Assembly (NCBI GenBank): GCA_964535955.1
Contig: CAZHVK010000007.1
Span: forward strand, 4,118 to 68,117
Direction of reading: 5' to 3'
From: an uncultured Methanosarcinales archaeon
Lineage (GTDB): Archaea; Nanobdellota; Nanobdellia; Woesearchaeales; CAXGTL01
DNA: 64,000 nt
Shown: positions 6,221 to 64,000 of the stretch, one piece after another
Layout: each line of letters opens with the position of its first letter
Position numbering within the stretch: the stretch's first letter is position 1
Notes under the pieces: model-generated
Told to the model about the DNA's origin: nothing
What the model saw: the letters and a program-made list of their open reading frames with translations, nothing else
Databases searched by the model: none
Position numbers and translations under genes: made by a program

Positions 6221-8875
6221 TTATATATCACTCAACCTCATCTGTTTAGGTTCTTTATAATTATCCATTATACCTGATTGTAGTTTTTCTTTTTTTGGTT
6301 TTTCTTTATTTTCTTCTTCTGTTTCTTTATTTTCTGTTTTTTCTAGTTGTTTTTCTTGTTTGTTTTCATCTTTTTCTTGTGTTTTGTCTGTTTCTTGTGT
6401 TTTTGTTTCTTGTTTCTCTCTTTTCAATGGAGCATGCACCCTTTCAGCAATCTTATCTTCCATCTCCAACCTATTCATTATCTGCATAGAACGCTCAATA
6501 ACTTCTTTAGGCAATCCAGCCAACTTTGCAACCTGTATTCCATATGATCTGTCTGTGCCACCTTCTACAATCTTTCTAAGAAACACAATCTCATCTTGTT
6601 TTTCATGTATAGCAATATTATAATTCTTCACACCACTTAACTTCTCTTGCAACTTATTCATCTGATGATAATGTGTTGCAAACAATGTTTTAGCACCAAT
6701 CTTTTGATGAATATGTTCTGCAATTGACCATGCCAGACTAATTCCATCAAATGTAGATGTACCTCTTCCAATTTCATCAAGAATAATAAGTGATTTGTCT
6801 GTTGCATTATTAAGAATATTAGCAGCTTCATTCATTTCAACCATAAAAGTTGATTGACCATGTGTTAAATCATCATAAGCACCCACACGGGTAAAAATAC
6901 GATCCACCAAACATAAATTAGCTGTTTTTGCAGGCACAAATGAACCTAATTGTGCCATGAGTTGTATTAATGCAACTTGTCTCATTGCTACGCTTTTTCC
7001 GGACATATTTGGGCCTGTTATGATTAATAATCTATTGTTTTCATCAATAACAATATCATTAGGCACAAACACAGACTCAATTAATTCCACAACAGGGTGT
7101 CTTGAATCTTTTAACTCAATCTTACTATTTTCATTAATCAAAGGTCTAACATAATTATTATTCTTTGCCACAACAGAAAACGAAACCAACACATCTAACA
7201 TTGCAATCTGTTGAGAGATTTTCTGAATATTTGTTGTATCTTTTTTTATTTCTTCACATACATTAACAAATAAATCATATTCTAGATTATTAATCTTTTC
7301 TTCTGCATTCAGAATCAAAGACTCTTTTTCTTTTAATTCAGGTGTTATAAATCTTTCAGCATTGACTAATGTTTGTTTTCTAATGTAATTTTCTGGTACT
7401 TTGTCTAGATTTGCTTTTGATATTGTTATGTAATATCCAAACACTCTGTTAAAACCAATTCTTAATGAGCCAATTCCTGTTTTTTGTTTTTCTTCTGCTT
7501 CTAATGAAGCAATCCATTGTTTGGTGTTTGTTGTTATTGATCTTAGCTCATCTAATTCTTTATTATAACCAGATTTGATTATATTACCTTCTCTAACAGA
7601 AACATTAGGCTCTTCTTTGATTGATGTATTGATTAATTCTTTTATATTAGAAAGAGTTTTCATGTCTGATATTTGTTTTAATAAAACAGATGATGTCTTG
7701 GAAAGGTGTTTTTTAATCTCAGGTATTAATTGCAGTGACATCTTCAGAGCAACAACATCTCTTGCATTTGCATTACCATAATTAATCTTAGCAATTATCC
7801 TCTCAACATCATTTAACTGTTTTAATAGATGAATAAGATCTTCTGTCAACATAGAATTATTGACAAATTCTTCAACAGCATCTAAACGCCTACCAATCAT
7901 CTCAGCAGACAAAAGAGGTTGCAGTATTATCTTCTTCAACAATCTTCCGCCAACTGAGGTACTTGTTTTATCCAAAGTTGACAACAGTGTTCCTTTTGTG
8001 GAATTATCAAGAATATTCTTAAGTAATTCTAAATTACGTTGTGTACTAGAATCCAAGAGCATATAATTACTTGGTGAGAAAATATTTATTTTATTTATAT
8101 AATCTAGACTAGTCTTTTGTGTTTCTTTTAGATAATTAATAAGTGCACCTGCAGCATTTATTGATAAGTCGGATTTCTCTAGACCAAACCCTTTTAGATT
8201 AATTGTTTTAAAATGCTTCAGAAGACAATTATAAGCCATTTCTGTATTAAAATTATAATCAGAATAAGGATTTATGAATACAGAATTCTGTTCAAACATC
8301 TTTATTAAATCTTTATTAACTCTCAGACTCTCAGGAATAATAATTTCTTTTGGTTTAAACCTTGTAATTTCATTTAATAAATTATCTTCATCAACATACA
8401 TTATCAAGAATTCACCTGTGGACAAATCAATAATTGCCAAAGCATACTTTTCTAATTGTTGGTAGATAGAAAATAAATAATTATTAGACTTAGCATCCAG
8501 CATACTATCTTCAACAACAGTTCCAGGTGTAACAATCCGAGTAACAGCTCTTTTTACAATACGACCTTTCACAGTTCTTGGATCTTCTGTCTGCTCACAT
8601 ATTGCTACTTTGTATCCAGCATTTACAAGTTTTGGTAAATATGTATTCAGAGCATGATATGGAATCCCTGCTAAAGGTGCTCTTCCTTCTCCTTTACCCC
8701 TAGCAGTCAGAGTGATATCTAGAACCTTAGAAGCAGTCACAGCATCTTCATAAAATGTTTCATAAAAATCCCCCATTCTAAACAATACTACACAATCTTT
8801 ATGTTTTTCCTTAACATCCATAAACTGCTTCATTGCAGGTGTTAGCTTTGTCGCAGAACTTATACTCCCTACCAT
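6221..8875 (-). CDS. mutS: DNA mismatch repair protein MutS with Lys/Glu-rich C-terminal tail
   Basis: N-terminal mismatch-binding motif GDFYETFYEDA, Walker A GPNMSGKS, MutS signature FATHY; ~70-aa K/E/T/Q low-complexity C-terminus. Confidence 0.9.
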   Translation of the reverse strand: MVGSISSATKLTPAMKQFMDVKEKHKDCVVLFRMGDFYETFYEDAVTASKVLDITLTARGKGEGRAPLAGIPYHALNTYLPKLVNAGYKVAICEQTEDPRTVKGRIVKRAVTRIVTPGTVVEDSMLDAKSNNYLFSIYQQLEKYALAIIDLSTGEFLIMYVDEDNLLNEITRFKPKEIIIPESLRVNKDLIKMFEQNSVFINPYSDYNFNTEMAYNCLLKHFKTINLKGFGLEKSDLSINAAGALINYLKETQKTSLDYINKINIFSPSNYMLLDSSTQRNLELLKNILDNSTKGTLLSTLDKTSTSVGGRLLKKIILQPLLSAEMIGRRLDAVEEFVNNSMLTEDLIHLLKQLNDVERIIAKINYGNANARDVVALKMSLQLIPEIKKHLSKTSSVLLKQISDMKTLSNIKELINTSIKEEPNVSVREGNIIKSGYNKELDELRSITTNTKQWIASLEAEEKQKTGIGSLRIGFNRVFGYYITISKANLDKVPENYIRKQTLVNAERFITPELKEKESLILNAEEKINNLEYDLFVNVCEEIKKDTTNIQKISQQIAMLDVLVSFSVVAKNNNYVRPLINENSKIELKDSRHPVVELIESVFVPNDIVIDENNRLLIITGPNMSGKSVAMRQVALIQLMAQLGSFVPAKTANLCLVDRIFTRVGAYDDLTHGQSTFMVEMNEAANILNNATDKSLIILDEIGRGTSTFDGISLAWSIAEHIHQKIGAKTLFATHYHQMNKLQEKLSGVKNYNIAIHEKQDEIVFLRKIVEGGTDRSYGIQVAKLAGLPKEVIERSMQIMNRLEMEDKIAERVHAPLKREKQETKTQETDKTQEKDENKQEKQLEKTENKETEEENKEKPKKEKLQSGIMDNYKEPKQMRLSDI

Positions 8876-23878: not shown

Positions 23879-24463
23879 TTATTTCTCTTTAGTCTTTAGA
23901 TAACCAAAATCACCAATATCTCCTGGATTAGTTCCATCTAATATATGCTCTGCAATTTTCTTCATTGTATACTGTCCACCACAATCAGCTTTGATCAATT
24001 CTATTGCATAACTTCTATGTGCAACTTGTTCTTTCTTATACATATCACAATGACAGCACACTAGTGTTATGTCTTTTCCTCTTTCTCCTGTTTTCCAATC
24101 ATGGTTAATCATTCCAGCTGCTTGAAGTGACTGGTCTAATGCATTTGTTCCTGCATATACAAACACATGTTCAATAAGGTCAGCATCTTGTCTAAGATTG
24201 AATTGTTCATAAAACTCATCAACAACTCTTTGTGCTTGTTCTCTTTTTCCTTCATTTGACCTATCATGACCTTCCCATCCATAGATGATGAGTCTTCCAT
24301 CTCCATAAACACCTGGCCTAAAGTCTTCAACACGTCTGTATGTCATTAGAACAATTGCTTTTTTTCCATTCTGTTTTAGCATTTGTTCTAGGTTTTGCTT
24401 ATCTACCACTCTTCCATTGTATTTTGGTTCTTGTTTTTTTTCTTTTTCTTTGTTTTCTTCCAT
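23879..24463 (-). CDS. hypothetical protein, paralog of the C-terminal domain of the upstream gene (conserved HVFxYxGxNA / CxCHxD motifs)
   Basis: 194 aa; aligns with residues ~190-330 of the 24470-25531 product (MTYxRV, GxLxIY, RVxDxFY, HVFVY, HD, CCHCD). Confidence 0.5.
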   Translation of the reverse strand: MEENKEKEKKQEPKYNGRVVDKQNLEQMLKQNGKKAIVLMTYRRVEDFRPGVYGDGRLIIYGWEGHDRSNEGKREQAQRVVDEFYEQFNLRQDADLIEHVFVYAGTNALDQSLQAAGMINHDWKTGERGKDITLVCCHCDMYKKEQVAHRSYAIELIKADCGGQYTMKKIAEHILDGTNPGDIGDFGYLKTKEK

Positions 24464-24469
24464 TTTTAT

Positions 24470-25531
24470 TCACCTTGTTCTATTTCTTATCCCTCTTGTC
24501 TTTTTCCATCTCCTTTTTTTTCCATTACCAATCTTTCCAACACCTTTTTTCTTGTTTGTTTTATAATCTTCAACAATCATGTTAGCAATTGTCTGCAGAT
24601 CACTTTCATATATCAGATCCATGTCATGAGCATCTGCAGTCTTTTTCTTCTCATCATAATGACAACCGCACGAAGCTAGTGACACTTTACCATGTAGGTC
24701 ATGTTGTATGTACAAAGCAGCATCTAACATTTCTTTCCAAGCATTTAACCCAGAATACAAAAACACATGTGCAATCTCATCACCACGCTGTCTAAGATTA
24801 TCAAAATCATCATAAAACTGGTCAATTACTCTTTTCGCAATACCAACAGCATGATCACCACCAAACTCCACACCAGAGATCTTTGCATCATATATTCTTA
24901 GTTTTCCACTACAATGTACACCATAACAAGGTTTGACTCGATTGTAAGTCATGATAACAATAGCTCCATCAGCATCAACTAATCCTCCATACTTAAGTAT
25001 TAATTCTATATCTTTTCTTTTACTGTTCAAACTACCTTTCTTATACCTTACAGAAGTATGTAATTCACCATAAACATCAAATTCATATTTATGCGGATTC
25101 CAAGGCATTGTAAATCTTGTACCACTTACTTGTTCATAATCTATTGATTGTTTTTTATAATCAATTGGAATAATATTTCTAATGTTTTCAAACATGTCAC
25201 TTAATTTCTTAGCATTTTCAGCACTTTCAATATCCTGTCCAAATAATATTCCATCTATTGCTGAATAATCAATCCCATTACAAGGTTTCCCATCTAAACA
25301 ATCTTCTAAACATGGAAGCCTGACTACCTTGACTTTCATCTTAGTTTGATTACTATTATTATGCCTGCCTGGTTGTTTAAATTCATAAACATCTGATAAA
25401 AGTTTATGAAAACCACGTTTTTCCATGCTTTGTTCATCAGGCTCAGCACTTATCAAACCAAGCACATATTCATATTTTATTTGTTCAATTTGTTTTTTTA
25501 ATTCTGATTCATTTATTGACATTTTATTCAC
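24470..25531 (-). CDS. hypothetical protein, N-terminal Cys-containing domain plus the paralogous His/Cys-motif domain
   Basis: 353 aa; C-terminal half paralogous to 23879-24463; Arg/Lys-rich tail. Confidence 0.5.
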   Translation of the reverse strand: MNKMSINESELKKQIEQIKYEYVLGLISAEPDEQSMEKRGFHKLLSDVYEFKQPGRHNNSNQTKMKVKVVRLPCLEDCLDGKPCNGIDYSAIDGILFGQDIESAENAKKLSDMFENIRNIIPIDYKKQSIDYEQVSGTRFTMPWNPHKYEFDVYGELHTSVRYKKGSLNSKRKDIELILKYGGLVDADGAIVIMTYNRVKPCYGVHCSGKLRIYDAKISGVEFGGDHAVGIAKRVIDQFYDDFDNLRQRGDEIAHVFLYSGLNAWKEMLDAALYIQHDLHGKVSLASCGCHYDEKKKTADAHDMDLIYESDLQTIANMIVEDYKTNKKKGVGKIGNGKKRRWKKTRGIRNRTR

Positions 25532-25971
25532 CTTTTATATTCCTCTACATACATCTCTACCAAATCTTTTAATTTGAATGTTATTTCTTTTGTTTTAACA
25601 ATTTCTTGTACTTGTGATTTAACAAAACTTCTCACATCTTGAGGTGATCCGCTTGTATAGATAATTGGAATCTTGTCATCAATATCTCTTATGTCACTTA
25701 ATGTCTGTGGACCTTGTGCAATACCCTTGTATGCATCATTATCAAGCACAACCAATGAATAACACTCTGTTTCGATTTCATCAACAGCTTGGTCTTGTTT
25801 ACAATAAATAATCTCGATTCCATAATCTTTTTTTATTGCTTCTGAAAATGAAGTTTCATAAATAAGATCATCATCTACCCAAAGTATCTTTACAATGACA
25901 TCTACTGAAAGCTTTGCATCTTTAACATATTTTACATCTTCAAACTTCCCAAAATAATCATCATCAATCAT
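25528..25971 (-). CDS. receiver (REC) domain protein with N-terminal DYFGKFEDVKY motif
   Basis: ILWVDDD, LVVLDNDA, IPIIYTSG, K in CheY-like order; start placed at internal Met (MIDDDYF) so that the overlap with the LRR gene is removed. Confidence 0.5.
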   Translation of the reverse strand: MIDDDYFGKFEDVKYVKDAKLSVDVIVKILWVDDDLIYETSFSEAIKKDYGIEIIYCKQDQAVDEIETECYSLVVLDNDAYKGIAQGPQTLSDIRDIDDKIPIIYTSGSPQDVRSFVKSQVQEIVKTKEITFKLKDLVEMYVEEYKR

Positions 25972-25972
25972 T

Positions 25973-26473
25973 TTATATGTAAAACTGCACCCCTCTGTCA
26001 CATAATTTTTTGAGTTCTCTTTTAATGTCAGGATCTTTATTATCAATCAGATTTCCTACTAAATTCAGTCCTCGTAGTTCTTCTAAATCATCTAAATGTC
26101 TTATTTTTTTGATTTGATTGCGTACTAAATGCAGATATTGTAATCTGCTTAATTCAGCTATTTCTCTAGGGATCTCTTTTAGTCCTTGATTATCCAAGTC
26201 TAACCTGACGACATGTTTATTTTCAATTATCACATTAACATCATTATCATCTGCAGGAGGTTTATTAAAATATTCTTTAACATCTTTACCAAAATATTTC
26301 TGAGTCATAAACTGTAATACAGTATATTCATATGGATCCAGCCTGCTTCCATGAATATCAATAATTTCTTTTTTATCATAACCAATCTTAATTACAGGAA
26401 GTTCTGAATCTTCAACAAATTTCACTTTCCTAAATCTTTTAAAATATTCATCAAACATTTTTGTTACCTCCAA
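25973..26473 (-). CDS. leucine-rich-repeat protein with N-terminal EYFKRFRKVKF motif
   Basis: LxxLxLxxNxI repeats (LDLDNQGLKEIP, LQYLHLVRNQI, LRGLNLVGNLI). Confidence 0.6.
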   Translation of the reverse strand: MEVTKMFDEYFKRFRKVKFVEDSELPVIKIGYDKKEIIDIHGSRLDPYEYTVLQFMTQKYFGKDVKEYFNKPPADDNDVNVIIENKHVVRLDLDNQGLKEIPREIAELSRLQYLHLVRNQIKKIRHLDDLEELRGLNLVGNLIDNKDPDIKRELKKLCDRGVQFYI

Positions 26474-26530: not shown

Positions 26531-27244
26531 TCATTCTTTGTTCCTCAAAACTTTGTAATCCACGCAATGCACAATTGTTTTTTTAATATCAATATTATTT
26601 TCTTCAAAATAAGGTTTTAGATCATGAAGCACTTTGTTAAAACTATGTTTACTAGCAGCAGCAATCCTTATTGTACCATTACTCAGTATCCTAAACTCAG
26701 GTATTTTTTCCATTGTATGTGCAATATTTTTTTCATACAATTCTGTTGAAACAATATCACTTATCTCATGAGTCTTGGTATCAATCATCCTAATTCCTTT
26801 TCCTTTTTTGCTTATTCCACACGCAATTATCTTGTTATACTGTTTACCAACCACATTGCCAAGGACAACAGGCAGTATATCAGACACACAAATATCCAGA
26901 TTATATATTTCCTCAACAAACAACTGCAGATTAGCAAGATCAACAACCTTTGTAGTCAAGTAATACAAATGTCCATGAGACTTTTGTGTTCCTGTTCCAA
27001 TGTACAGTTCACCTAGGGTATTATCTTTTTTATTAGGAAGTATTCCTACAATATTTATCCTGCTCAAACATGTTCTTCCATAAGGAAGTGTAAAACTAAT
27101 ATCTTTGCCAAGATAAACATTAGCATTATCAATCCTTATTATTTGTTTCAGAGGCATGAATACTGAAGCTGTTTTCTTGCCTTTACCAGCAGCAACTTCA
27201 TGTTCAAGCTTTCCAAATCTATTAAAATAATTGTCTTGTGTCAT
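26531..27244 (-). CDS. hypothetical protein, member of a 3-paralog family in this operon
   Basis: shares DILPVVLG, GTG...Y, GIRMI blocks with 29521-30273; N-terminal NYFNRF. Confidence 0.5.
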   Translation of the reverse strand: MTQDNYFNRFGKLEHEVAAGKGKKTASVFMPLKQIIRIDNANVYLGKDISFTLPYGRTCLSRINIVGILPNKKDNTLGELYIGTGTQKSHGHLYYLTTKVVDLANLQLFVEEIYNLDICVSDILPVVLGNVVGKQYNKIIACGISKKGKGIRMIDTKTHEISDIVSTELYEKNIAHTMEKIPEFRILSNGTIRIAAASKHSFNKVLHDLKPYFEENNIDIKKTIVHCVDYKVLRNKE

Positions 27245-28797
27245 TTTAGATTTACATTTACCTCTCCAATTATAATATTAGGAATATCTTTAGGTTCTCT
27301 TACATGGTATATCATGAAATCAGCATCATTAAACTGTTCTTGATAATGTTCAACATCATATCTTCCAGTATAAACAACACAGACCCTGTTCACATCAGGC
27401 AGATTTTTAAGATAATTAAAAAACATATCCAACCCACTTATCTCAAGATCAGACACAACAACAATGTCTAGTTCTTTTTCAGACTCAGTAACAATCTTTT
27501 TCAATTTTTCAAGATTTTTATTATCAATAACAGTTCCGCCATTGTTTGACTTTGTAAGACCAGAAAATATACTCAATTGATCAGTCTGAAAACTTTTTTC
27601 TAATTCTATGTCATCAACAACTGCATTAAACAGATAAACACCTACTTTTGATTCATTCTCTAGATAAGCTTTTGCAGTTGCAACACAAGCAGCTTCTGCA
27701 TAAGGCTCGCAATGTGTCATACTTCCTGATATATCCTTGATTATCAATACATTTGGCACCTGGTCAGAATCTTTGTAAGCAATTCCTTGTTCTTTTATCC
27801 ATGTTTTACCCAAACCAGGACAAAATGGTTTTCCAAGTGAAGCAAAAACATCTACATCAAGCGGATTATCATCTATTTCATACTCTTTGTGTGAATAAGG
27901 AAACATTGACCCATTTTCATGTATTTTTCTTTTCCTTATCTCAGGCCTGTAGTTTTCAGCAAGATTCTCAAAATAAATAATGTCTCTTAATTTATTATCA
28001 CCAACCATATTACCAGGCAGTATACCATTTGCAACAAGACGACCCACAATTTTATCAAATTCATCTTTGTCTTTTGAACATGCTAATTGTTTCAAAGCTT
28101 TCTTGATTTCATTTTTATCATATGCTTTTTCTCCAAACACTCCAAAACCAGGCATACCCATTGACAAATCTTCTGGCTTCATACCATAAAGATTCATGAT
28201 ATCAACAATTATTCTTGTAAATCTTTTAACATTTCTTACTTCATTTTTTGCATCAAAATAATCAATTGTTGACAATCTCTCTACTTGTTTTTTCAGGAAT
28301 TTATCTAATTTATTTTGTTTTAATCCAAGATCTTTTTTTATTGCATTCTGCATATATGCTTTGATAACTTTCATAACAGGATTGTTTGGTTTGATAACCC
28401 TTAGAAAGTCAGTGATTTCATCAACATTTTTCTTTAGTATTAGATCTAGGTTAACACAAACATCAGAATAAATTCTTGAAGCCTGCAGCCCAATATTTTC
28501 ATCAACTTTTAGACCAGCTTGATCCATTAAAATAGCTCTAAAAAGATCATACGGATTATACAGATAATGATCAATTTCATGTGACAATAATCCTGTAAAT
28601 ATTGTATCATATGATAATCCTTTTCCATGTAATTCTTGAACAAATGCATCACATACTTCTATTTGATGATCCCTCATATCAATTGAAGCTGTTTGAGTCT
28701 CATCAAAACCTACTAACATTGGCCTTGGCAAATTAGGAAAATAAAACTTTTTTCTTACTAATTTCCAGTTTTCCAGCATTATTTGTTCTAGGTTCAT
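27241..28797 (-). CDS. von Willebrand factor A (vWA) domain protein
   Basis: C-terminal MIDAS motif DISGSMT followed by an alpha/beta pattern; start set at Met-13 giving ATGA overlap with the upstream gene. Confidence 0.55.
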   Translation of the reverse strand: MNLEQIMLENWKLVRKKFYFPNLPRPMLVGFDETQTASIDMRDHQIEVCDAFVQELHGKGLSYDTIFTGLLSHEIDHYLYNPYDLFRAILMDQAGLKVDENIGLQASRIYSDVCVNLDLILKKNVDEITDFLRVIKPNNPVMKVIKAYMQNAIKKDLGLKQNKLDKFLKKQVERLSTIDYFDAKNEVRNVKRFTRIIVDIMNLYGMKPEDLSMGMPGFGVFGEKAYDKNEIKKALKQLACSKDKDEFDKIVGRLVANGILPGNMVGDNKLRDIIYFENLAENYRPEIRKRKIHENGSMFPYSHKEYEIDDNPLDVDVFASLGKPFCPGLGKTWIKEQGIAYKDSDQVPNVLIIKDISGSMTHCEPYAEAACVATAKAYLENESKVGVYLFNAVVDDIELEKSFQTDQLSIFSGLTKSNNGGTVIDNKNLEKLKKIVTESEKELDIVVVSDLEISGLDMFFNYLKNLPDVNRVCVVYTGRYDVEHYQEQFNDADFMIYHVREPKDIPNIIIGEVNVNLK

Positions 28798-29528
28798 AGT
28801 TCTGACAACCTCATCATCGGCCTCCACCTGCATGCAAAATAAGGATATTGCAGATATTTGTTAATCACCATTGCCATGTCATTTCTTTCTGCCAAGACAA
28901 CTTGAACCCTTTCTGCCGTCATTGAATCATGCTTATATGTTGAACCAGTTGAATAAACAGTGATAAAATCATTTGGAATATCATAATTATAAATACGCAC
29001 TAAAAAAGTTTCCAAAGAGTTTGCATGATCAATAACCTCTTCTTTACCATATAATCCTGAAAAATAAACTACTTTCTCAACTTCTTTAAATTCTATATCA
29101 TCTTTAAAATCACTAGTCAATTTTTCAAAGTGATAAGCAATACAATTTGAAACATCTTTTCTATGACCATGATCAGGTCTATAATCTAATGTAATATATC
29201 CTTCATCAAGATACATAAATGGATCATACATCAAAAGCTCATCTGTCTTGATCCTATTATCAACTTCAATCATCTTTGAAAATTGTTTCATCAGCTTTGA
29301 AAGCTTTGAATAATATTGTATTTCATTAATACCAGGCGCAATAATATCATTTACCAAATTATATAACATAGGATATTGCTTAGCATGTTTATGATTAACC
29401 CTCACAAAATCCAAAGCCTCATAAGTCACAACAATCAATTTTGGTTTTAGTTTCTCAATTACCAATTCCTTTATATCTTTAAATTCCACATCCTTGAATT
29501 TTTCAAAATATTCATTCATTTTAATCAA
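28794..29528 (-). CDS. hypothetical protein with N-terminal MIKMNEYFEKFKDVEFKD motif
   Basis: 244 aa; N-terminal 25 aa nearly identical to the next gene product. Confidence 0.5.
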   Translation of the reverse strand: MIKMNEYFEKFKDVEFKDIKELVIEKLKPKLIVVTYEALDFVRVNHKHAKQYPMLYNLVNDIIAPGINEIQYYSKLSKLMKQFSKMIEVDNRIKTDELLMYDPFMYLDEGYITLDYRPDHGHRKDVSNCIAYHFEKLTSDFKDDIEFKEVEKVVYFSGLYGKEEVIDHANSLETFLVRIYNYDIPNDFITVYSTGSTYKHDSMTAERVQVVLAERNDMAMVINKYLQYPYFACRWRPMMRLSEL

Positions 29529-30274: not shown

Positions 30275-31636
30275 TCATTCTGACTGACCCTGATCTAGTG
30301 CTTCTAATCTTGTATCTCTTTCTAATTCAGGAAATATTGGATGATTCTTATCACTAGCATATTCAGCTGCCTTGCTTATCAAACCTTGTTTTCTAAAACA
30401 CACATAATTCTTAACAAAAGCAGCTTGATCTCTAAATCTGTCTGAAATACCTTTTGCAAGTTTCTGCATTGCATAAAGATTAAGTACCATTGCTTGTTGA
30501 TCTTTTTCAAGCCCAGTCAAATAACTAGACTGCATTTCAGCTTTGTGCCAAGTCACATAAGGCAGTACTTTATACATGTGCTCAATATTTACTTCATCAG
30601 CACCAGTATACCATGCAAGTGCTCTTGCATATTTTTTCCATGCTTTTAATGTTCTTGCTGATAATGGATTCTTTATATTCTGACAAGCAAAATCACTCCA
30701 ATGACATTCATTTGAAAAACATTTGTCATTTTTTCTTTTTACTCCAAGCCTATGCTGGCATGTTGACAATTCTGTGTCAGCAAATATAAAATACAGTTCA
30801 GCATCATCATTAATTCTTATATCCTTGATTTCTTCTTCAGCTTTTTTTAATTCTTCATAACCTAGTAATTGAATTCCAAGCCCTTCTCCCAATTTCCACT
30901 TAAACTGTTCAATAATTACCTTGACTTCTTGCATTTTTTCTTGGTAAGACTTGCCTTTTGCATTATAGATGCCAAATATTTGGTTTGCAACAACAGCATT
31001 TTCTAATAATTTATGCGCGCCATTATCCATCTCAGAGATCCTGCTTCTTTGGGTAACACTTGGTGACATTGATTCTGTTGCAATGTCAAACCTTTCAACA
31101 ATAACTTCTGTCAAAGCTTGGTTAGACCTGTCAGCCCAGTTACAAGTAGCAAACAATGGAAAATCTCCTGTTCTGATCATTCCAGATAAATATTTCCAAT
31201 TACCTCTATCGATTCCGTCTACAAACAAGTTTAGTTTTGATCCAGGAAACCTACTAAGCTCATCAATTATTTTTGCTCTGTTAAGAACAAAATAAGTCCA
31301 TATAATTGTTTCATCTCCTAGTTTTGTCAAGTCACCAAGATGCGGCCTTGCAATTGTTTTTTCTTCTGTCTGCTCAGCATGTCCTCTTATTTCTGACGCA
31401 AGCACAACTTCTCTTGGCAGACCATACATCAAGCTGACAACACTTTCACATGAAGTCGTCTTTCCAAGACCATACTCTCCATAGATCATGTGCTTTCCAT
31501 TCACAATGCATGACAAGATCTCAAACAATAATGATGAGTTAAACTCTTTATCATCTATCATAATGTCAGGCACACACAAGTACAGATTTTTTTTTGCATA
31601 ATCATATATTTCATTGACTTTTTCTCTAAGTTCCAT
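30275..31636 (-). CDS. P-loop NTPase (AAA/MoxR-like?)
   Basis: Walker A GEYGLGKTT, downstream LNLFVDGIDRG (Walker B-like) and LNRA segment; long helical C-terminal region. Confidence 0.5.
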   Translation of the reverse strand: MELREKVNEIYDYAKKNLYLCVPDIMIDDKEFNSSLLFEILSCIVNGKHMIYGEYGLGKTTSCESVVSLMYGLPREVVLASEIRGHAEQTEEKTIARPHLGDLTKLGDETIIWTYFVLNRAKIIDELSRFPGSKLNLFVDGIDRGNWKYLSGMIRTGDFPLFATCNWADRSNQALTEVIVERFDIATESMSPSVTQRSRISEMDNGAHKLLENAVVANQIFGIYNAKGKSYQEKMQEVKVIIEQFKWKLGEGLGIQLLGYEELKKAEEEIKDIRINDDAELYFIFADTELSTCQHRLGVKRKNDKCFSNECHWSDFACQNIKNPLSARTLKAWKKYARALAWYTGADEVNIEHMYKVLPYVTWHKAEMQSSYLTGLEKDQQAMVLNLYAMQKLAKGISDRFRDQAAFVKNYVCFRKQGLISKAAEYASDKNHPIFPELERDTRLEALDQGQSE

Positions 31637-32402
31637 TTTTATACCTCTTTGTAAATACCTCTTTTAATTTTGCTTCAACATAAAAAGTGACTTTTTCATC
31701 AATATCATATTTTCCATGTTCTATTTCTGCAAAAAATATACGAAAATATGCATCAGTTTCTAAACTAGGATCTATCTCACAAATTTTTTCATAGACTTCA
31801 GAAGGTTTCACACCTATATCTTTTAGATCTAATAAATTATCTACAAGTTCTTTTTTAGGAACAGGAAGTTCAATACCAGGTATTGGTTGAACACCTACTT
31901 CAACCTGTCTTGCAAGGTTATAACCTTGCACAAGTATGTCTAATGCAAGGGCTTGTTCATCAATTGGTTTGTCCTTGTTTTTGTATTTTAGAAACTCTTC
32001 TCTAGGATTATCACTTTTCACAAGTATTTCAAGCATTTTCATGTAGTGATCTTTACCAACATTCTTTGAAACAGCAATATCAATTACATCTTTATCAAAC
32101 TCTGCTTCATTTCCACCAGTATTACCAAATATAGGAACATCATAAACATGTTTTACAGCTTTTGCTAGACAATTACCTTCATTTCCTTGTTTTAGAATAC
32201 TTTTATTATCATCAACAGGCATATCTTTGTCAGTTATGATTGCATCTGGTCTTTCAGCTAATGCTTTTTCAATACCTTGATCAGCATTTTCAGCAGTGAT
32301 TATCTCTAAGTTATGGTCAATCTTTTTCAGATACTTGACTACTTTATCAAGATATTTTTTATCATCATCTACAACCAGGATTTTCTTTTTTTGTTTATTC
32401 AT
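31626..32402 (-). CDS. receiver (REC) domain protein with unknown C-terminal domain
   Basis: KKILVVDDD..., IITDKDMP (phospho-Asp position), conserved Lys; 258 aa. Confidence 0.6.
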   Translation of the reverse strand: MNKQKKKILVVDDDKKYLDKVVKYLKKIDHNLEIITAENADQGIEKALAERPDAIITDKDMPVDDNKSILKQGNEGNCLAKAVKHVYDVPIFGNTGGNEAEFDKDVIDIAVSKNVGKDHYMKMLEILVKSDNPREEFLKYKNKDKPIDEQALALDILVQGYNLARQVEVGVQPIPGIELPVPKKELVDNLLDLKDIGVKPSEVYEKICEIDPSLETDAYFRIFFAEIEHGKYDIDEKVTFYVEAKLKEVFTKRYKNGT

Positions 32403-32404
32403 TT

Positions 32405-32788
32405 TTATCTCCCCGCATATCTTGGATTTTTTTCAACAGCAGACTCAAGCATCCTACCTAGACAACCTAATTCTCTTCCCAAATACTTTCTCTCATTAGG
32501 AAGTTCATTCATATAATTGCTCAACCCAATCAAATAATTAGCAAGACTTCTAGTTGGTACTCTTGGTTCAGGCAATACATGAGCATATTTCCCATCATAA
32601 GTCCATATTGCATCAATAAAACAGTCAACAATATCATACTCAAAATCTTCAAAGTCTTTGTCCATCACAAAATCAGAATCTCTTGCCAAGTCTTCTAAAA
32701 GTTTGATATAATTTTCAAATACCCTAACTGCTTTTTTTGCAATAAACTGTTTATAGTATTCCAAGTTTTCTTTTTGTTCTGGTTTCAT
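32405..32788 (-). CDS. hypothetical helical protein
   Basis: 127-aa ORF, 2-nt gap from the REC gene. Confidence 0.4.
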   Translation of the reverse strand: MKPEQKENLEYYKQFIAKKAVRVFENYIKLLEDLARDSDFVMDKDFEDFEYDIVDCFIDAIWTYDGKYAHVLPEPRVPTRSLANYLIGLSNYMNELPNERKYLGRELGCLGRMLESAVEKNPRYAGR

Positions 32789-33599: not shown

Positions 33600-34526
33600 A
33601 TGATAAAAAGAAAACTCATCAAACAAGGATTGGGTGGATTTACAATATATCTGCCTAAGAAATGGATAGACCACTACAAACTAAGACCAGGAGATGAGAT
33701 AAACATATTAGAAGTAGAGAATAATCTCTTGTTATCAGCAAAAGCAAGACATGAAACAAAACAGATAACACTTAATTTTACACAAGAACACATAGATAAG
33801 ACATTGATCAGGATAAGCTTGAATGATGTATATAGACTAGGATATGACAAGATCACAGTCAATTACAAGACAGCTGAACAAAGAAAAAGAATTCTAAAGA
33901 TCGTTGATGAATATTTGCTTGGGTTTGAAGTGACAGAAGAGAAAAGAGATAAATTTGTAATTGAAAATGTGACAGAGCCAAGTGAAGAAAAGCAAGAAAC
34001 AATTGTCAAGAGAATGTTTTATCTTATCAAAGAGAGTTTTAAGACAGTAAATAAACACATGGCAAAAAATGAATTCAAAAGAATAGATAAGATGAGCCAA
34101 TTAACAAAAAAAGTCGATAGATATAATAATTACTGCAGAAGAAATATTTCTAAAAAAAGGTTTCAGAATGAAAGAGTGTATTTTTATTGGGGTCTTTATA
34201 TCCAGCTTTTATTGATACAACACAGCTTGTTTTATTTTTATAGGGTAATGCATGATACAAAAAAGATAAAGATCAAAACAAGCATAATAAAAATATTCAA
34301 GCAACTGCAGTCTAATTTTGATGAACTGACAACTGCATTTTTTAAAAAAGATTGTAATGAAATAGGAAAGATAAACAACAGGACAAACAAATATTTCTAC
34401 AACCATATACAAAAACAGATCATCAAGTCAAAAGGCAAAGATTCTTTATTATTATATTATCTTGGAGAACTCGGTAGAGTGATCTATCTCTCAACATCAC
34501 CTATGCTTGGGATCTTGTTTGAGTAA
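33600..34526 (+). CDS. AbrB/SpoVT-type swapped-hairpin N-domain regulator with PhoU-like helical C-domain
   Basis: N-terminal LIKQGLGGFTIYLPKKWIDHYKLRPGDEINI matches AbrB-type DNA-binding fold; helical remainder as in archaeal AbrB-PhoU regulators. Confidence 0.45.
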   Translation: MIKRKLIKQGLGGFTIYLPKKWIDHYKLRPGDEINILEVENNLLLSAKARHETKQITLNFTQEHIDKTLIRISLNDVYRLGYDKITVNYKTAEQRKRILKIVDEYLLGFEVTEEKRDKFVIENVTEPSEEKQETIVKRMFYLIKESFKTVNKHMAKNEFKRIDKMSQLTKKVDRYNNYCRRNISKKRFQNERVYFYWGLYIQLLLIQHSLFYFYRVMHDTKKIKIKTSIIKIFKQLQSNFDELTTAFFKKDCNEIGKINNRTNKYFYNHIQKQIIKSKGKDSLLLYYLGELGRVIYLSTSPMLGILFE

Positions 34527-60596: not shown

Positions 60597-60629
60597 TTAG
60601 ATAAATATAAATGCCACAAAATCATTGCA

Positions 60630-60719
60630 TGGGTCTGGCCGGACTCGAACCGGCGATTAACGCCTATCTTTTCCTAATGGAATGTAAGGGCGCTGTCATA
60701 GCCACTAGACCACAAACCC
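60630..60719 (-). tRNA. tRNA-Val(UAC) with ~17-nt anticodon-loop intron
   Basis: reverse complement: GGGTTTG TG GTC-TAGTGGCTAT-GAC A GCGCC CTTACA[intron]A GGCGT TAAT GCCGG TTCGAGT CCGGC CAGACCC A. Confidence 0.7.
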
Positions 60720-60778
60720 AATTATATATAGAAAACAAACCACATATATAAAAAGGTTACTGTAAAAAGCTTTATATA

Positions 60779-61591
60779 TTGTCTTGTTTTATTCTTATTA
60801 TCATGTACACACTAAACCTAAACCCAACACTACTTGAACTCGGACAATTAGAAATAAGATGGTATGGTTTGATATATGCATTTGGTTTTATCTTATTTTA
60901 TTTGACAATGTATTATGTTTCTAAAAAGAATCTTATTGAAAATCTAGATAAGAATAATGTTGACAATTATGTTTTATACATAATTCTTGGTGTTGTTATC
61001 TGTGCAAGGTTTTTTGACTTTGTATTTTATAATTTTAAAACAATATTTACAGATCCATTAGAGATTCTAAAGATCTGGCACGGTGGACTAAGTTTTCATG
61101 GAGCATTAATAGGATTTATTCTTGGCACATGGTTATTCTGCAAAAAATATAAAATCAATATCTGGAAAACATTAGATGTTTCAGCCATTGTTGTAATTTT
61201 TGCTGTAATGCTAGGCAGAATTGGAAACTTAATTAATGCAGAATTAATTGGAACCCCATTTAATGGATCATGGTGTGTTATATTTCCAAACTATGATACA
61301 GTTTGTAGACACCCTTATCCAATCTATGCAGCTCTATCCCATTTATTATTGTTCTTATATTTAATCTTTTTACTTTACAAAAACAAAGAGAATATCAAAG
61401 ACTATCTGGGTAAGAGGAATTTAACAATTAGTTTTTTCATAGGTTATGGAATCTTAAGAATAATTACAGATATATGGAAAGTTGATAATATAGTACTAGG
61501 AATCAAGACAGGACAATGGTTAAGTTTGGTAATGGTCTTGATTGGTATTTTATTAATTATATTCAACAAAAGAAAACAAAAACCTTTATAA
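60779..61591 (+). CDS. lgt: prolipoprotein diacylglyceryl transferase (Lgt)-like membrane protein
   Basis: EIRWYGLIYAFGFILFY N-terminal motif and Lgt signature GRIGNLINAELIGTP; 7 predicted TM. Confidence 0.65.
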   Translation: MSCFILIIMYTLNLNPTLLELGQLEIRWYGLIYAFGFILFYLTMYYVSKKNLIENLDKNNVDNYVLYIILGVVICARFFDFVFYNFKTIFTDPLEILKIWHGGLSFHGALIGFILGTWLFCKKYKINIWKTLDVSAIVVIFAVMLGRIGNLINAELIGTPFNGSWCVIFPNYDTVCRHPYPIYAALSHLLLFLYLIFLLYKNKENIKDYLGKRNLTISFFIGYGILRIITDIWKVDNIVLGIKTGQWLSLVMVLIGILLIIFNKRKQKPL

Positions 61592-61849: not shown

Positions 61850-61953
61850 TTTTTTTTAAGAAACATCAAAAATACAGAGTATTTTTGTGGCTTTGAAATT
61901 CCATAAGAATTTCAAAAGGTTTTTAAACAAATATCAAATAATTTAAATATACT

Positions 61954-62028
61954 GCCCCGTTGGTGTAGTCCGGCCAATCATCTTGCCCTTTCGAGGCAAG
62001 GACTCGGGTTCAAATCCCGGACGGGGCA
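61954..62028 (+). tRNA. tRNA-Glu(UUC), intronless
   Basis: GCCCCGT TG GTG-TAGTCCGGCCAAT-CAT C TTGCC CTTTCGA GGCAA GGAC TCGGG TTCAAAT CCCGG ACGGGGC A. Confidence 0.8.
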
Positions 62029-62098
62029 TTTATTATTCTCAATCATAGATAACTTTTTAAGTGCAATACGAATTCTCAGTTTATTAAAACAAAAATAG

Positions 62099-64000
<1,902 letters not shown>

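Follow-up and report, generated by a model that had tools for sequence, protein, structure and literature searches.

Two neighbouring minus-strand genes in a 64,000-nucleotide stretch of archaeal contig CAZHVK010000007.1, the whole of which is referred to here as the window, encode an intact and a degenerate copy of a protein domain of ~145 residues, the CxC...CGG domain, which is undescribed in the libraries searched. Window proteins are labelled W followed by their length in amino acids (aa), family member proteins carry P#### labels, and loci with relatives outside the window carry L### labels. The two genes stand directly downstream of a gene for a receiver (REC)-like protein, whose stop overlaps the start of W353.

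23879-24463, minus strand: W194, a 194-aa open reading frame (ORF) with an intact CxC...CGG domain at residues ~32-181
24470-25531, minus strand: W353, a 353-aa ORF with a degenerate CxC domain at residues ~186-326, DNA ~24554-24976
25528-26046, minus strand: W172, a REC-like protein, scoring 23.8 bits against Pfam Response_reg (below the 30.2 gathering cut-off) and 4.9e-7 against NCBIfam PorX RR

The paralogy of W194 and W353 is real and far beyond chance. Residues 22-149 of W194 align with residues 172-302 of W353 at 41% identity over 138 aa (BLASTP, E=3e-19), which bears out the first-pass annotation of this DNA in its statement that the 194-aa product aligns over ~140 residues with the C-terminal half of the 353-aa product. 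Both ORFs are as it described them, and the blocks that it listed, MTYxRV, GxLxIY, RVxDxFY, HVF(V/L)Y, HD, a Cys-rich block and AH, are all found in the pairwise alignment. The histidine match in the 'CH' of the Cys block is an artefact of that pairwise comparison. The family alignment moves the block by one position, and C137-H-C139 of W194 (codons ~24047-24055) then pairs with C-G-C of W353, which brings a conserved lysine five residues after the second cysteine into register. A third invariant cysteine, C161 within ECGG (CGG codons ~23975-23983), was invisible to the pairwise reading because W353 has deleted five residues exactly there. Chance similarity or spurious ORFs are effectively excluded as an explanation. 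An AT-rich window (30% GC) does yield many spurious ORFs and nothing else speaks in favour, whereas the E value between the copies is accompanied by ~45 homologues in independent metagenomes and metagenome-assembled genomes (MAGs), by conserved synteny and by a confidently predicted fold.

Word-indexed homology searches with W194 or W353 recovered only the query proteins themselves, so that relatives were reached only by searching 1.84 billion representatives exhaustively with HMMER, using a profile built from both copies. The profile search returned 36 proteins at E<=1e-3, of which nine reached E<=1e-10, and a profile word search added 11 further clusters (14 by another count), the sole named member being a 'hypothetical protein' from Ca. 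Falkowbacteria, a bacterium of the Candidate Phyla Radiation (CPR). In total ~45 distant relatives were found in DPANN archaea and CPR bacteria, most of them stand-alone proteins of 140-190 aa. A locus search with the three closest sequences gave only two MAGs, both already in the set. Neither W194 nor W353 matches Pfam, NCBIfam or PADLOC. In scans of 30 individual members (Pfam and NCBIfam, E<=5), at most two members matched any one family, the only repeated match being Response_reg on a fused N-terminal domain. The family profile found nothing among PDB sequences (best E=0.27), annotated phage genomes contained no relatives of the domain, and a literature search found no description of the domain, or of the N-terminal tag and operon type set out below. 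The impression from the first reading that no hydrolase family fits is upheld and extends to known families in general, with Pfam, NCBIfam, PADLOC, the PDB sequence profile and Foldseek on PDB and BFVD all negative, and because no membership test of the domain was positive it is assigned to none of the known families compared. That it represents a new receiver-coupled family with a cysteine triad is near certain. In the PDB sequence-profile search the ECGG-helix segment resembled a designed 'phosphate-loop protein', but only at noise level (E=1.3), and the match was set aside. Two members, P0020 (467 aa) and P0035 (503 aa), carry a C-terminal extension of ~300 residues in which G/W/Y-rich segments recur and which contains a GDGSCC(C/S)GG motif; the extension matched no Pfam family and may be propeller-like.

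Conservation was counted over a 41-sequence alignment in W194 numbering (pairwise identity median 26%, minimum 14%). Y42, Y103, G105, C137 and C139 are kept in 41/41 sequences, C161, G163 and G51 in 40/41, K144 and G162 in 38/41, N43 in 35/41 and E160 in 29/41, and the family signature is (T/S)-Y-N-x-V-x-G ... Y-x-G ... C-x-C-x4-K ... E-C-G-G. These counts alter the nature of the site proposed initially, which was one of conserved His, Asp and Cys residues. The real domain, the clustering of its invariant residues and the cysteines stand, but the histidines and aspartate do not, being kept in only 3-16 of the 41 sequences (H99 in 9, H121 in 11, H138 in 5, H149 in 3 and D122 in 16), with the histidines restricted to close relatives. 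A metal-dependent, hydrolase-like His/Asp/Cys site built from HVF, HD, CxCH and AH has in its favour that these residues are identical in both paralogues and in the closest orthologues, P0003 and P0004. It is nevertheless very improbable, being largely refuted by the family conservation just given, by the artefactual 'CH' match and by the lack of a match to any hydrolase family in sequence or fold. As the histidines are poorly conserved across the 41 members, a His-based metallohydrolase-type site is unlikely from the alignment, while a Cys-triad site is plausible.

The two copies in the window have fared differently. W194 matches the family hidden Markov model (HMM) at E=1.7e-51 and retains all invariant residues. 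W353 matches at E=5.8e-33 with a 5-residue gap at the CGG position; it keeps Y, YxG, CxC and K, has lost the ECGG loop, and is the sole sequence in the 41-member alignment without C161-G-G. Its degenerate domain is flanked by a unique N-terminal half (residues 1-~170), for which no homologues were found, and by a K/R-rich C-terminal tail. The orthologous operons at L017 and L027 hold a single copy of the CxC...CGG domain and W353 is therefore a lineage-specific duplicate, a degenerate one that has lost the third-Cys loop and gained the N-terminal half and basic tail. Its most likely role would be a non-catalytic one, in which it partners or regulates W194. The composition of the tail, KKKGVGKIGNGKKRRWKKTRGIRNRTR, suggests the binding of nucleic acid or of an acidic partner. 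The N-terminal half also contains a small Cys cluster, CLEDCLDGKPC.

A structure of W194 predicted by AlphaFold 2 (AF2) from a 30-sequence alignment reached a predicted local distance difference test (pLDDT) score of 87.3 and a predicted template modelling (pTM) score of 0.84, with all five models at pLDDT 85-87; with only the two paralogues as input, the prediction was unusable (pLDDT 51). The predicted elements are a helix at 22-32, a strand at 36-40, a hairpin at 51-53 / 58-61, helices at 70-87 and 90-96, a strand at 97-104, a helix at 106-124, a strand at 132-136, a helix at 141-150, a strand at 154-158 and a helix at 164-175, and the modelled fold is an α/β sandwich. Y42 comes after strand 36-40, in a segment that reads (T/S)YNxVxG across the family, and Y103 and G105 are at the end of strand 97-104. 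C137 and C139 lie between strand 132-136 and the helix carrying K144, and strand 154-158 leads into C161-G-G, which caps the last helix. Classical β-α-β units join the final three strands of the model, which makes these strands parallel, and their C-terminal ends, with the invariant residues, would therefore share one edge of the sheet. The C-terminal strand edge is the canonical ligand site of β-α-β folds. Dispersal of the conserved residues, which would have spoken against a site, is thus not what the confident model predicts, since its topology places the invariant residues at C-terminal strand ends.

Foldseek searches of the model against PDB and BFVD gave no match at E<=0.001. The top matches were weak and comprised the lysine 5,6-aminomutase β subunit (E=0.018), viral VWA proteins (E=0.006) and Rho/Rab GTPases (E~0.03, TM 0.35-0.40). 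The domain is like the B12-binding Rossmann-like domain, small GTPases and VWA in its predicted β-α-β architecture and in a putative ligand site at the C-terminal strand edge, but it lacks the hallmarks of each. The 41-sequence alignment contains neither DxHxxG/SxL/GG of the B12-binding domain, nor the MIDAS motif DxSxS of VWA, nor the Walker A GxxxxGK[ST] of P-loop GTPases, and the NKxD motif of GTPases is likewise absent from the domain.

The receiver-like domain is a conserved partner of the CxC...CGG domain. W172 probably starts at M26 (25971), which gives it the N-terminal tag MIDDDYFGKFEDVKYV; it has an orthologue, L017_150 (E=7e-27), and its residues 53-160 align with the N-terminal domains of P0005, P0006, P0010, P0018 and P0019. 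In these five proteins and in P0015, a receiver-like N-terminal domain is fused to a C-terminal CxC...CGG domain, while in the window, L017, L020 and L023 a receiver-like gene directly precedes the CxC...CGG gene. In at least 10 lineages, then, the two make up one conserved module, either as a fusion or as neighbouring genes. The receiver-like domain is an atypical one, with Response_reg reaching E<0.01 in only 2/30 fusion or family members. It keeps (D/N)(D/E) after β1, an invariant Asp in LDNDA and an invariant TS in IIYTS, but the β5 Lys position is not conserved and is occupied by K, R, P or D. The CxC...CGG domain was also considered as a diverged receiver duplicated from its partner, and was rejected as such when hhalign against the REC-like alignment returned a probability of 1.5%.

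Transcriptional regulators form a second recurrent association.

33600-34526, plus strand: W308, encoded divergently; Pfam MazE_antitoxin 9e-5, PhoU 2e-3

On the strength of these matches W308 is a putative AbrB/MazE-like and PhoU-like regulator. It has orthologues in L011 (E=1.6e-15), L017 (2.7e-35) and L027 (5.8e-25), and an AbrB/MazE-plus-PhoU-like gene is divergent in the window, L011, L017, L027 and the P0010 contig, which is to say in every archaeal-type context. A TrmB-family regulator is found instead in four bacterial contexts (L013/L014, L015, L016 and L025). Methyltransferase and radical SAM genes were rejected as conserved partners, since those present in L013, L017 and L025 are not homologous across loci. 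In the CPR-type loci L015 (2400-12000) and L016 (4900-9800), the CxC...CGG gene lies downstream of the TrmB regulator amid numerous tiny ORFs (40-140 aa) and long stretches in which no gene was called; one small ORF is common to both (L015 7302-7643 and L016 6723-7091, E=1e-14). L020/L022 is a 2.6 kb contig, JAHIYT010000113.1, labelled 'Patescibacteria group bacterium', whose genes (REC-like, CxC...CGG and an AsnC-type regulator) share 33-51% identity with their counterparts in the Woesearchaeota MAG L017, and which may reflect mis-binning or archaeal-bacterial transfer.

In the window the receiver-like/CxC...CGG module forms the end of an eleven-gene minus-strand operon running from 32788 to 23879 in the order W127, W258, W453, W250, W244, W530, W237, W166, W172, W353, W194. 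The eight genes upstream of the module are as follows.

32405-32788, minus strand: W127, the first operon gene, with no family match
31626-32402, minus strand: W258, a canonical-looking receiver protein; Response_reg 30.1 bits against a cut-off of 30.2
30275-31636, minus strand: W453, a MoxR-like AAA+ ATPase; AAA_lid_2 19.8 bits
29521-30273, minus strand: W250, tagged (MIKMNDYFDRFKDVEYKE), a paralogue of W237
28794-29528, minus strand: W244, tagged, a candidate Cys-less relative of the CxC...CGG domain
27241-28833, minus strand: W530, with an HExxH-containing (LLSHEIDHYLYNPYD) N-terminal region and a VWA-like C-terminal region bearing a MIDAS-type DISGSM
26531-27244, minus strand: W237, tagged, a paralogue of W250
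25973-26473, minus strand: W166, a tagged LRR protein (MFDEYFKRFRKVKFVE from M6); Pfam LRR_8 3.1e-9

The closest genome with an orthologous operon is a Candidatus Woesearchaeota MAG (DPANN), which contains L017, and the REC, AAA and HExxH-VWA core is kept at 40-58% identity there and in L027. W258 has many NCBIfam response-regulator matches and orthologues L017_286 and L027_262. The operon AAA+ protein is of the MoxR type by its sequence features. L017_455, 58% identical to W453, scores 24.5 bits against AAA_lid_2, above the 22.7 cut-off, and 18.5 bits against AAA_5, below the cut-off of 22, and carries the Walker A GxxGxGKT; L027_444 is 48% identical to W453. W530 is 48% identical to L017_519 and 40% to L027_510, and both the zincin-like HExxH and DISGSM (DxSxS) are kept in all three. 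Pfam recognises no family in W530, and the VWA matches obtained for the operon are sub-threshold, namely NCBIfam ViaA on W530 (2.6e-4), Pfam VWA_CoxE on its L017 orthologue (0.008, 16 bits against a cut-off of 26.4) and a faint VWA_2.

Two further operon proteins are of interest as possible duplications. W244 contains the stretches LIVVTYEAL, VVYFSGLYG and, where VACDC would be expected, VYSTG. The family HMM matches it at E=0.048 and its orthologue L017_297 (L017:5029-5922) at 6e-4, and hhalign gives P=4.6e-4, against P=0.5 for controls, with a probability of 33%. These values are no more than suggestive of a third copy of the domain in W244/L017_297, one that would be Cys-less, insertion-bearing and degenerate. 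W237 and W250 are 25% identical over 248 aa (BLASTP, E=1.8e-16), and represent a second duplicated domain in the operon with no detectable family.

Several proteins encoded together in these operons, although otherwise unrelated in sequence, share an N-terminal tag, (Y/F)(Y/F)x(K/R)F(K/R)xV(E/K), which occurs on five window, seven L017 and four L027 proteins. In the window it is borne by W250, W244, W237, W166 and W172, with MNDYFDRFKDVEYKE as an example peptide, and is absent from W194. The tags start as follows, all on the minus strand.

~25971, minus strand: W172, at M26
~26458, minus strand: W166, at M6
27244, minus strand: W237
~29519, minus strand: W244, at M4
~30264, minus strand: W250, at M4

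Window ORFs of at least 120 aa total 19,605 residues, among which [YF][YF]x[RKC]F is matched at five places, each of them one of these N-termini. At L017 (1673-10023) seven operon proteins begin MS(Y/F)YK(R/K)F, and at L027 (3076-7763) four begin M(A)DFFxKF(K/R), one of these being the CxC...CGG protein P0048. The tag is seen solely where MoxR-like AAA and HExxH-VWA genes occur, and is absent from the loci without that pair (L011, L013, L015, L016 and L025). It may be a recruitment or processing signal. A wider scheme is possible though doubtful, in which the tagged LRR, receiver-like, CxC...CGG and other proteins would be recruited or processed by a new MoxR/HExxH-VWA machine under receiver/AbrB control, with the CxC...CGG protein as the terminal effector or sensor and, separately, as a receiver-coupled metal or redox sensor of DPANN archaea and CPR bacteria.

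Our favoured explanation is a composite that starts from the observed paralogy, family, invariant residues, fold class, REC linkage and operon conservation, and adds to them a receiver-coupled Cys-triad domain that would bind metal or an Fe-S cluster or sense redox state, together with roles for its partner and operon. We hold it tentatively, as approaching an even chance, and the metal or redox chemistry is its uncertain step. Of the two halves of the module, the CxC...CGG domain would be the output or sensor and the receiver-like domain the other, and the module would work with a divergently encoded transcription factor that is AbrB/PhoU-like in archaea and TrmB in CPR bacteria. Model topology suggests as the functional site a crevice at the C-terminal edge of the parallel sheet, lined by C137, C139, C161, Y42, Y103 and K144 together with two glycine-rich strand-to-helix turns. 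Here the three cysteines may ligate a metal ion or an Fe-S cluster and leave one coordination position free, or may cycle between thiol and disulfide, and the state of the triad would be the signal or activity handed to the receiver-like partner and read out with the adjacent regulator. The MoxR-like AAA+ and HExxH-VWA proteins would probably assemble, mature or process the tagged protein set. Several observations weigh against this explanation. Classical phosphotransfer is doubtful, judged from sequence, because the partner is without the conserved Lys, its Pfam score is sub-threshold and no histidine kinase is encoded within the window. There is no obvious fourth ligand, and a three-Cys site accompanied by invariant Tyr and Lys suits thiol catalysis equally well. 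Most family members are also without MoxR/VWA neighbours, so that the MoxR/VWA context says little about the intrinsic chemistry of the domain.

The same residues could serve a thiol-based enzyme or a sulfur/redox relay that is free of metal, with C161 or the CxC pair acting as nucleophile, persulfide carrier or redox disulfide and Y42, Y103 and K144 positioning the substrate. Both Cys motifs are at strand-to-helix turns in the model, a geometry that depresses the pKa of the thiol in rhodanese, DsrE/TusD, DJ-1 and thioredoxin-type sites; an invariant Tyr, Tyr and Lys are commoner in catalytic or substrate-binding sites than in pure metal sites, and a methyltransferase or radical SAM gene lies near some loci. 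We consider such an enzyme rather unlikely, however, in that the domain bears no likeness to any known thiol enzyme family, the adjoining enzymes are not conserved across loci, and the steady partners are regulators and receiver-like domains, which are better suited to signalling than to metabolism. The domain may instead be a non-catalytic adaptor or scaffold, a module for protein-protein interaction within the receiver/MoxR/VWA system, whose cysteines hold a structural zinc or form a structural disulfide. The persistence of degenerate copies, W353 without CGG and possibly the Cys-less W244/L017_297, implies that the fold is useful without the full triad, and archaeal response regulators signal mostly via protein-protein contacts (PMC5847659). 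An adaptor is nonetheless an unlikely answer, since the absolute conservation of the edge Tyr, Cys and Gly at 14-30% identity is stronger than is usual for a structural site, and stand-alone single-domain members occur in CPR bacteria without the putative partners.

Among known systems, the closest kind to the CxC...CGG domain is the group of lineage-specific output domains of archaeal response regulators, namely HalOD1/2, MetOD1, NitrOD1-5 and TackOD1, among which the Cys-rich HalOD2 and TackOD1 are predicted metal binders (Galperin et al. 2018, PMC5847659). Like them it is small, lineage-restricted, and either stand-alone or C-terminal to a receiver. Unlike HalOD2 and TackOD1, which are CxxC zinc-ribbon types, it is predicted to be an α/β sandwich with a triad. 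To the archaeal output domains in general it shows no sequence relationship, and unlike them its family spans DPANN and CPR and its receiver partner is atypical. DPANN genomes had almost no two-component proteins in the census of that study (PMC5847659).

The operon itself, in encoding a MoxR-like AAA+ protein and a DxSxS MIDAS-type protein, is like RavA-ViaA, NorQ-NorD, CoxD-CoxE and CbbQ-CbbO. Such MoxR/VWA pairs are described as maturing or remodelling dedicated clients, often metalloproteins (PMC9976466, PMC3893208), with NorQ/NorD as a pair that inserts a metal cofactor (PMC9976466). The present operon differs from these pairs in that its VWA-like protein also has a conserved HExxH, a receiver protein is encoded near its head, and co-encoded proteins are tagged. 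A looser likeness exists to the vWA-MoxR-VMAP ternary conflict systems, which combine a MoxR and vWA core with variable effectors and occasionally receiver or metallopeptidase domains (Kaur et al. 2020, PMC7159879), in that here too a MoxR-like and VWA-like core is accompanied by varied proteins. A defence-system (VMAP-like) reading of the operon was weighed and set aside, given that its core proteins have no PADLOC hit, no VMAP was detected, and it occupies a core-chromosome site with conserved synteny. Its proteins share an N-terminal peptide of ~10 residues, as opposed to the effector-associated domain of ~80-100 residues shared in the conflict systems, and its host is a reduced-genome DPANN archaeon rather than a multicellular bacterium.

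DPANN and CPR genomes are tiny and rich in unannotated genes, and regulation in them is essentially uncharted. Should the favoured explanation prove true, the domain would represent a new sensory or effector module common to two groups of ultra-small organisms, and, being clearly defined, small and easy to express, it lends itself to biochemical work on metals and redox. Of the two leads, the shared N-terminal tag is the more novel; its occurrence beside a MoxR/VWA-metallopeptidase pair suggests a route of client selection, a matter that is unresolved for most MoxR systems.

The wider setting of the operon, which adjoins PolB, Sua5 and RtcB genes, is a core archaeal chromosome, as follows from the archaeal RNA polymerase, ribosomal and other core genes. 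The window encodes split RNA polymerase A'/A'' and B'/B'', NusA-KH, S12, S7, Spt5, FtsZ and ScpA, as well as RtcB, archease, Sua5, a family-B DNA polymerase and MutS/MutL, and the same gene order is found in several marine and subsurface metagenome assemblies. The MutL/MutS genes, at 230-1990 and 6221-8875 on the minus strand, are complete and of bacterial type, in a small-genome DPANN-like archaeon. On the plus strand at 60779-61591, a gene strongly matches prolipoprotein diacylglyceryl transferase (Lgt, E=9e-65), an enzyme typical of bacteria, on an otherwise archaeal chromosome. Two tRNA-Glu(UUC) genes, at 60629-60720 (minus strand) and 61953-62029 (plus strand), lie on opposite strands 1.2 kb apart, and the length of the first, 92 nt, may point to an intron or to some extended structure. 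At 62099-64000 on the plus strand, a single ORF that continues past the end of the window apparently joins a PfkB-family sugar/nucleoside kinase to S-adenosylhomocysteine hydrolase.

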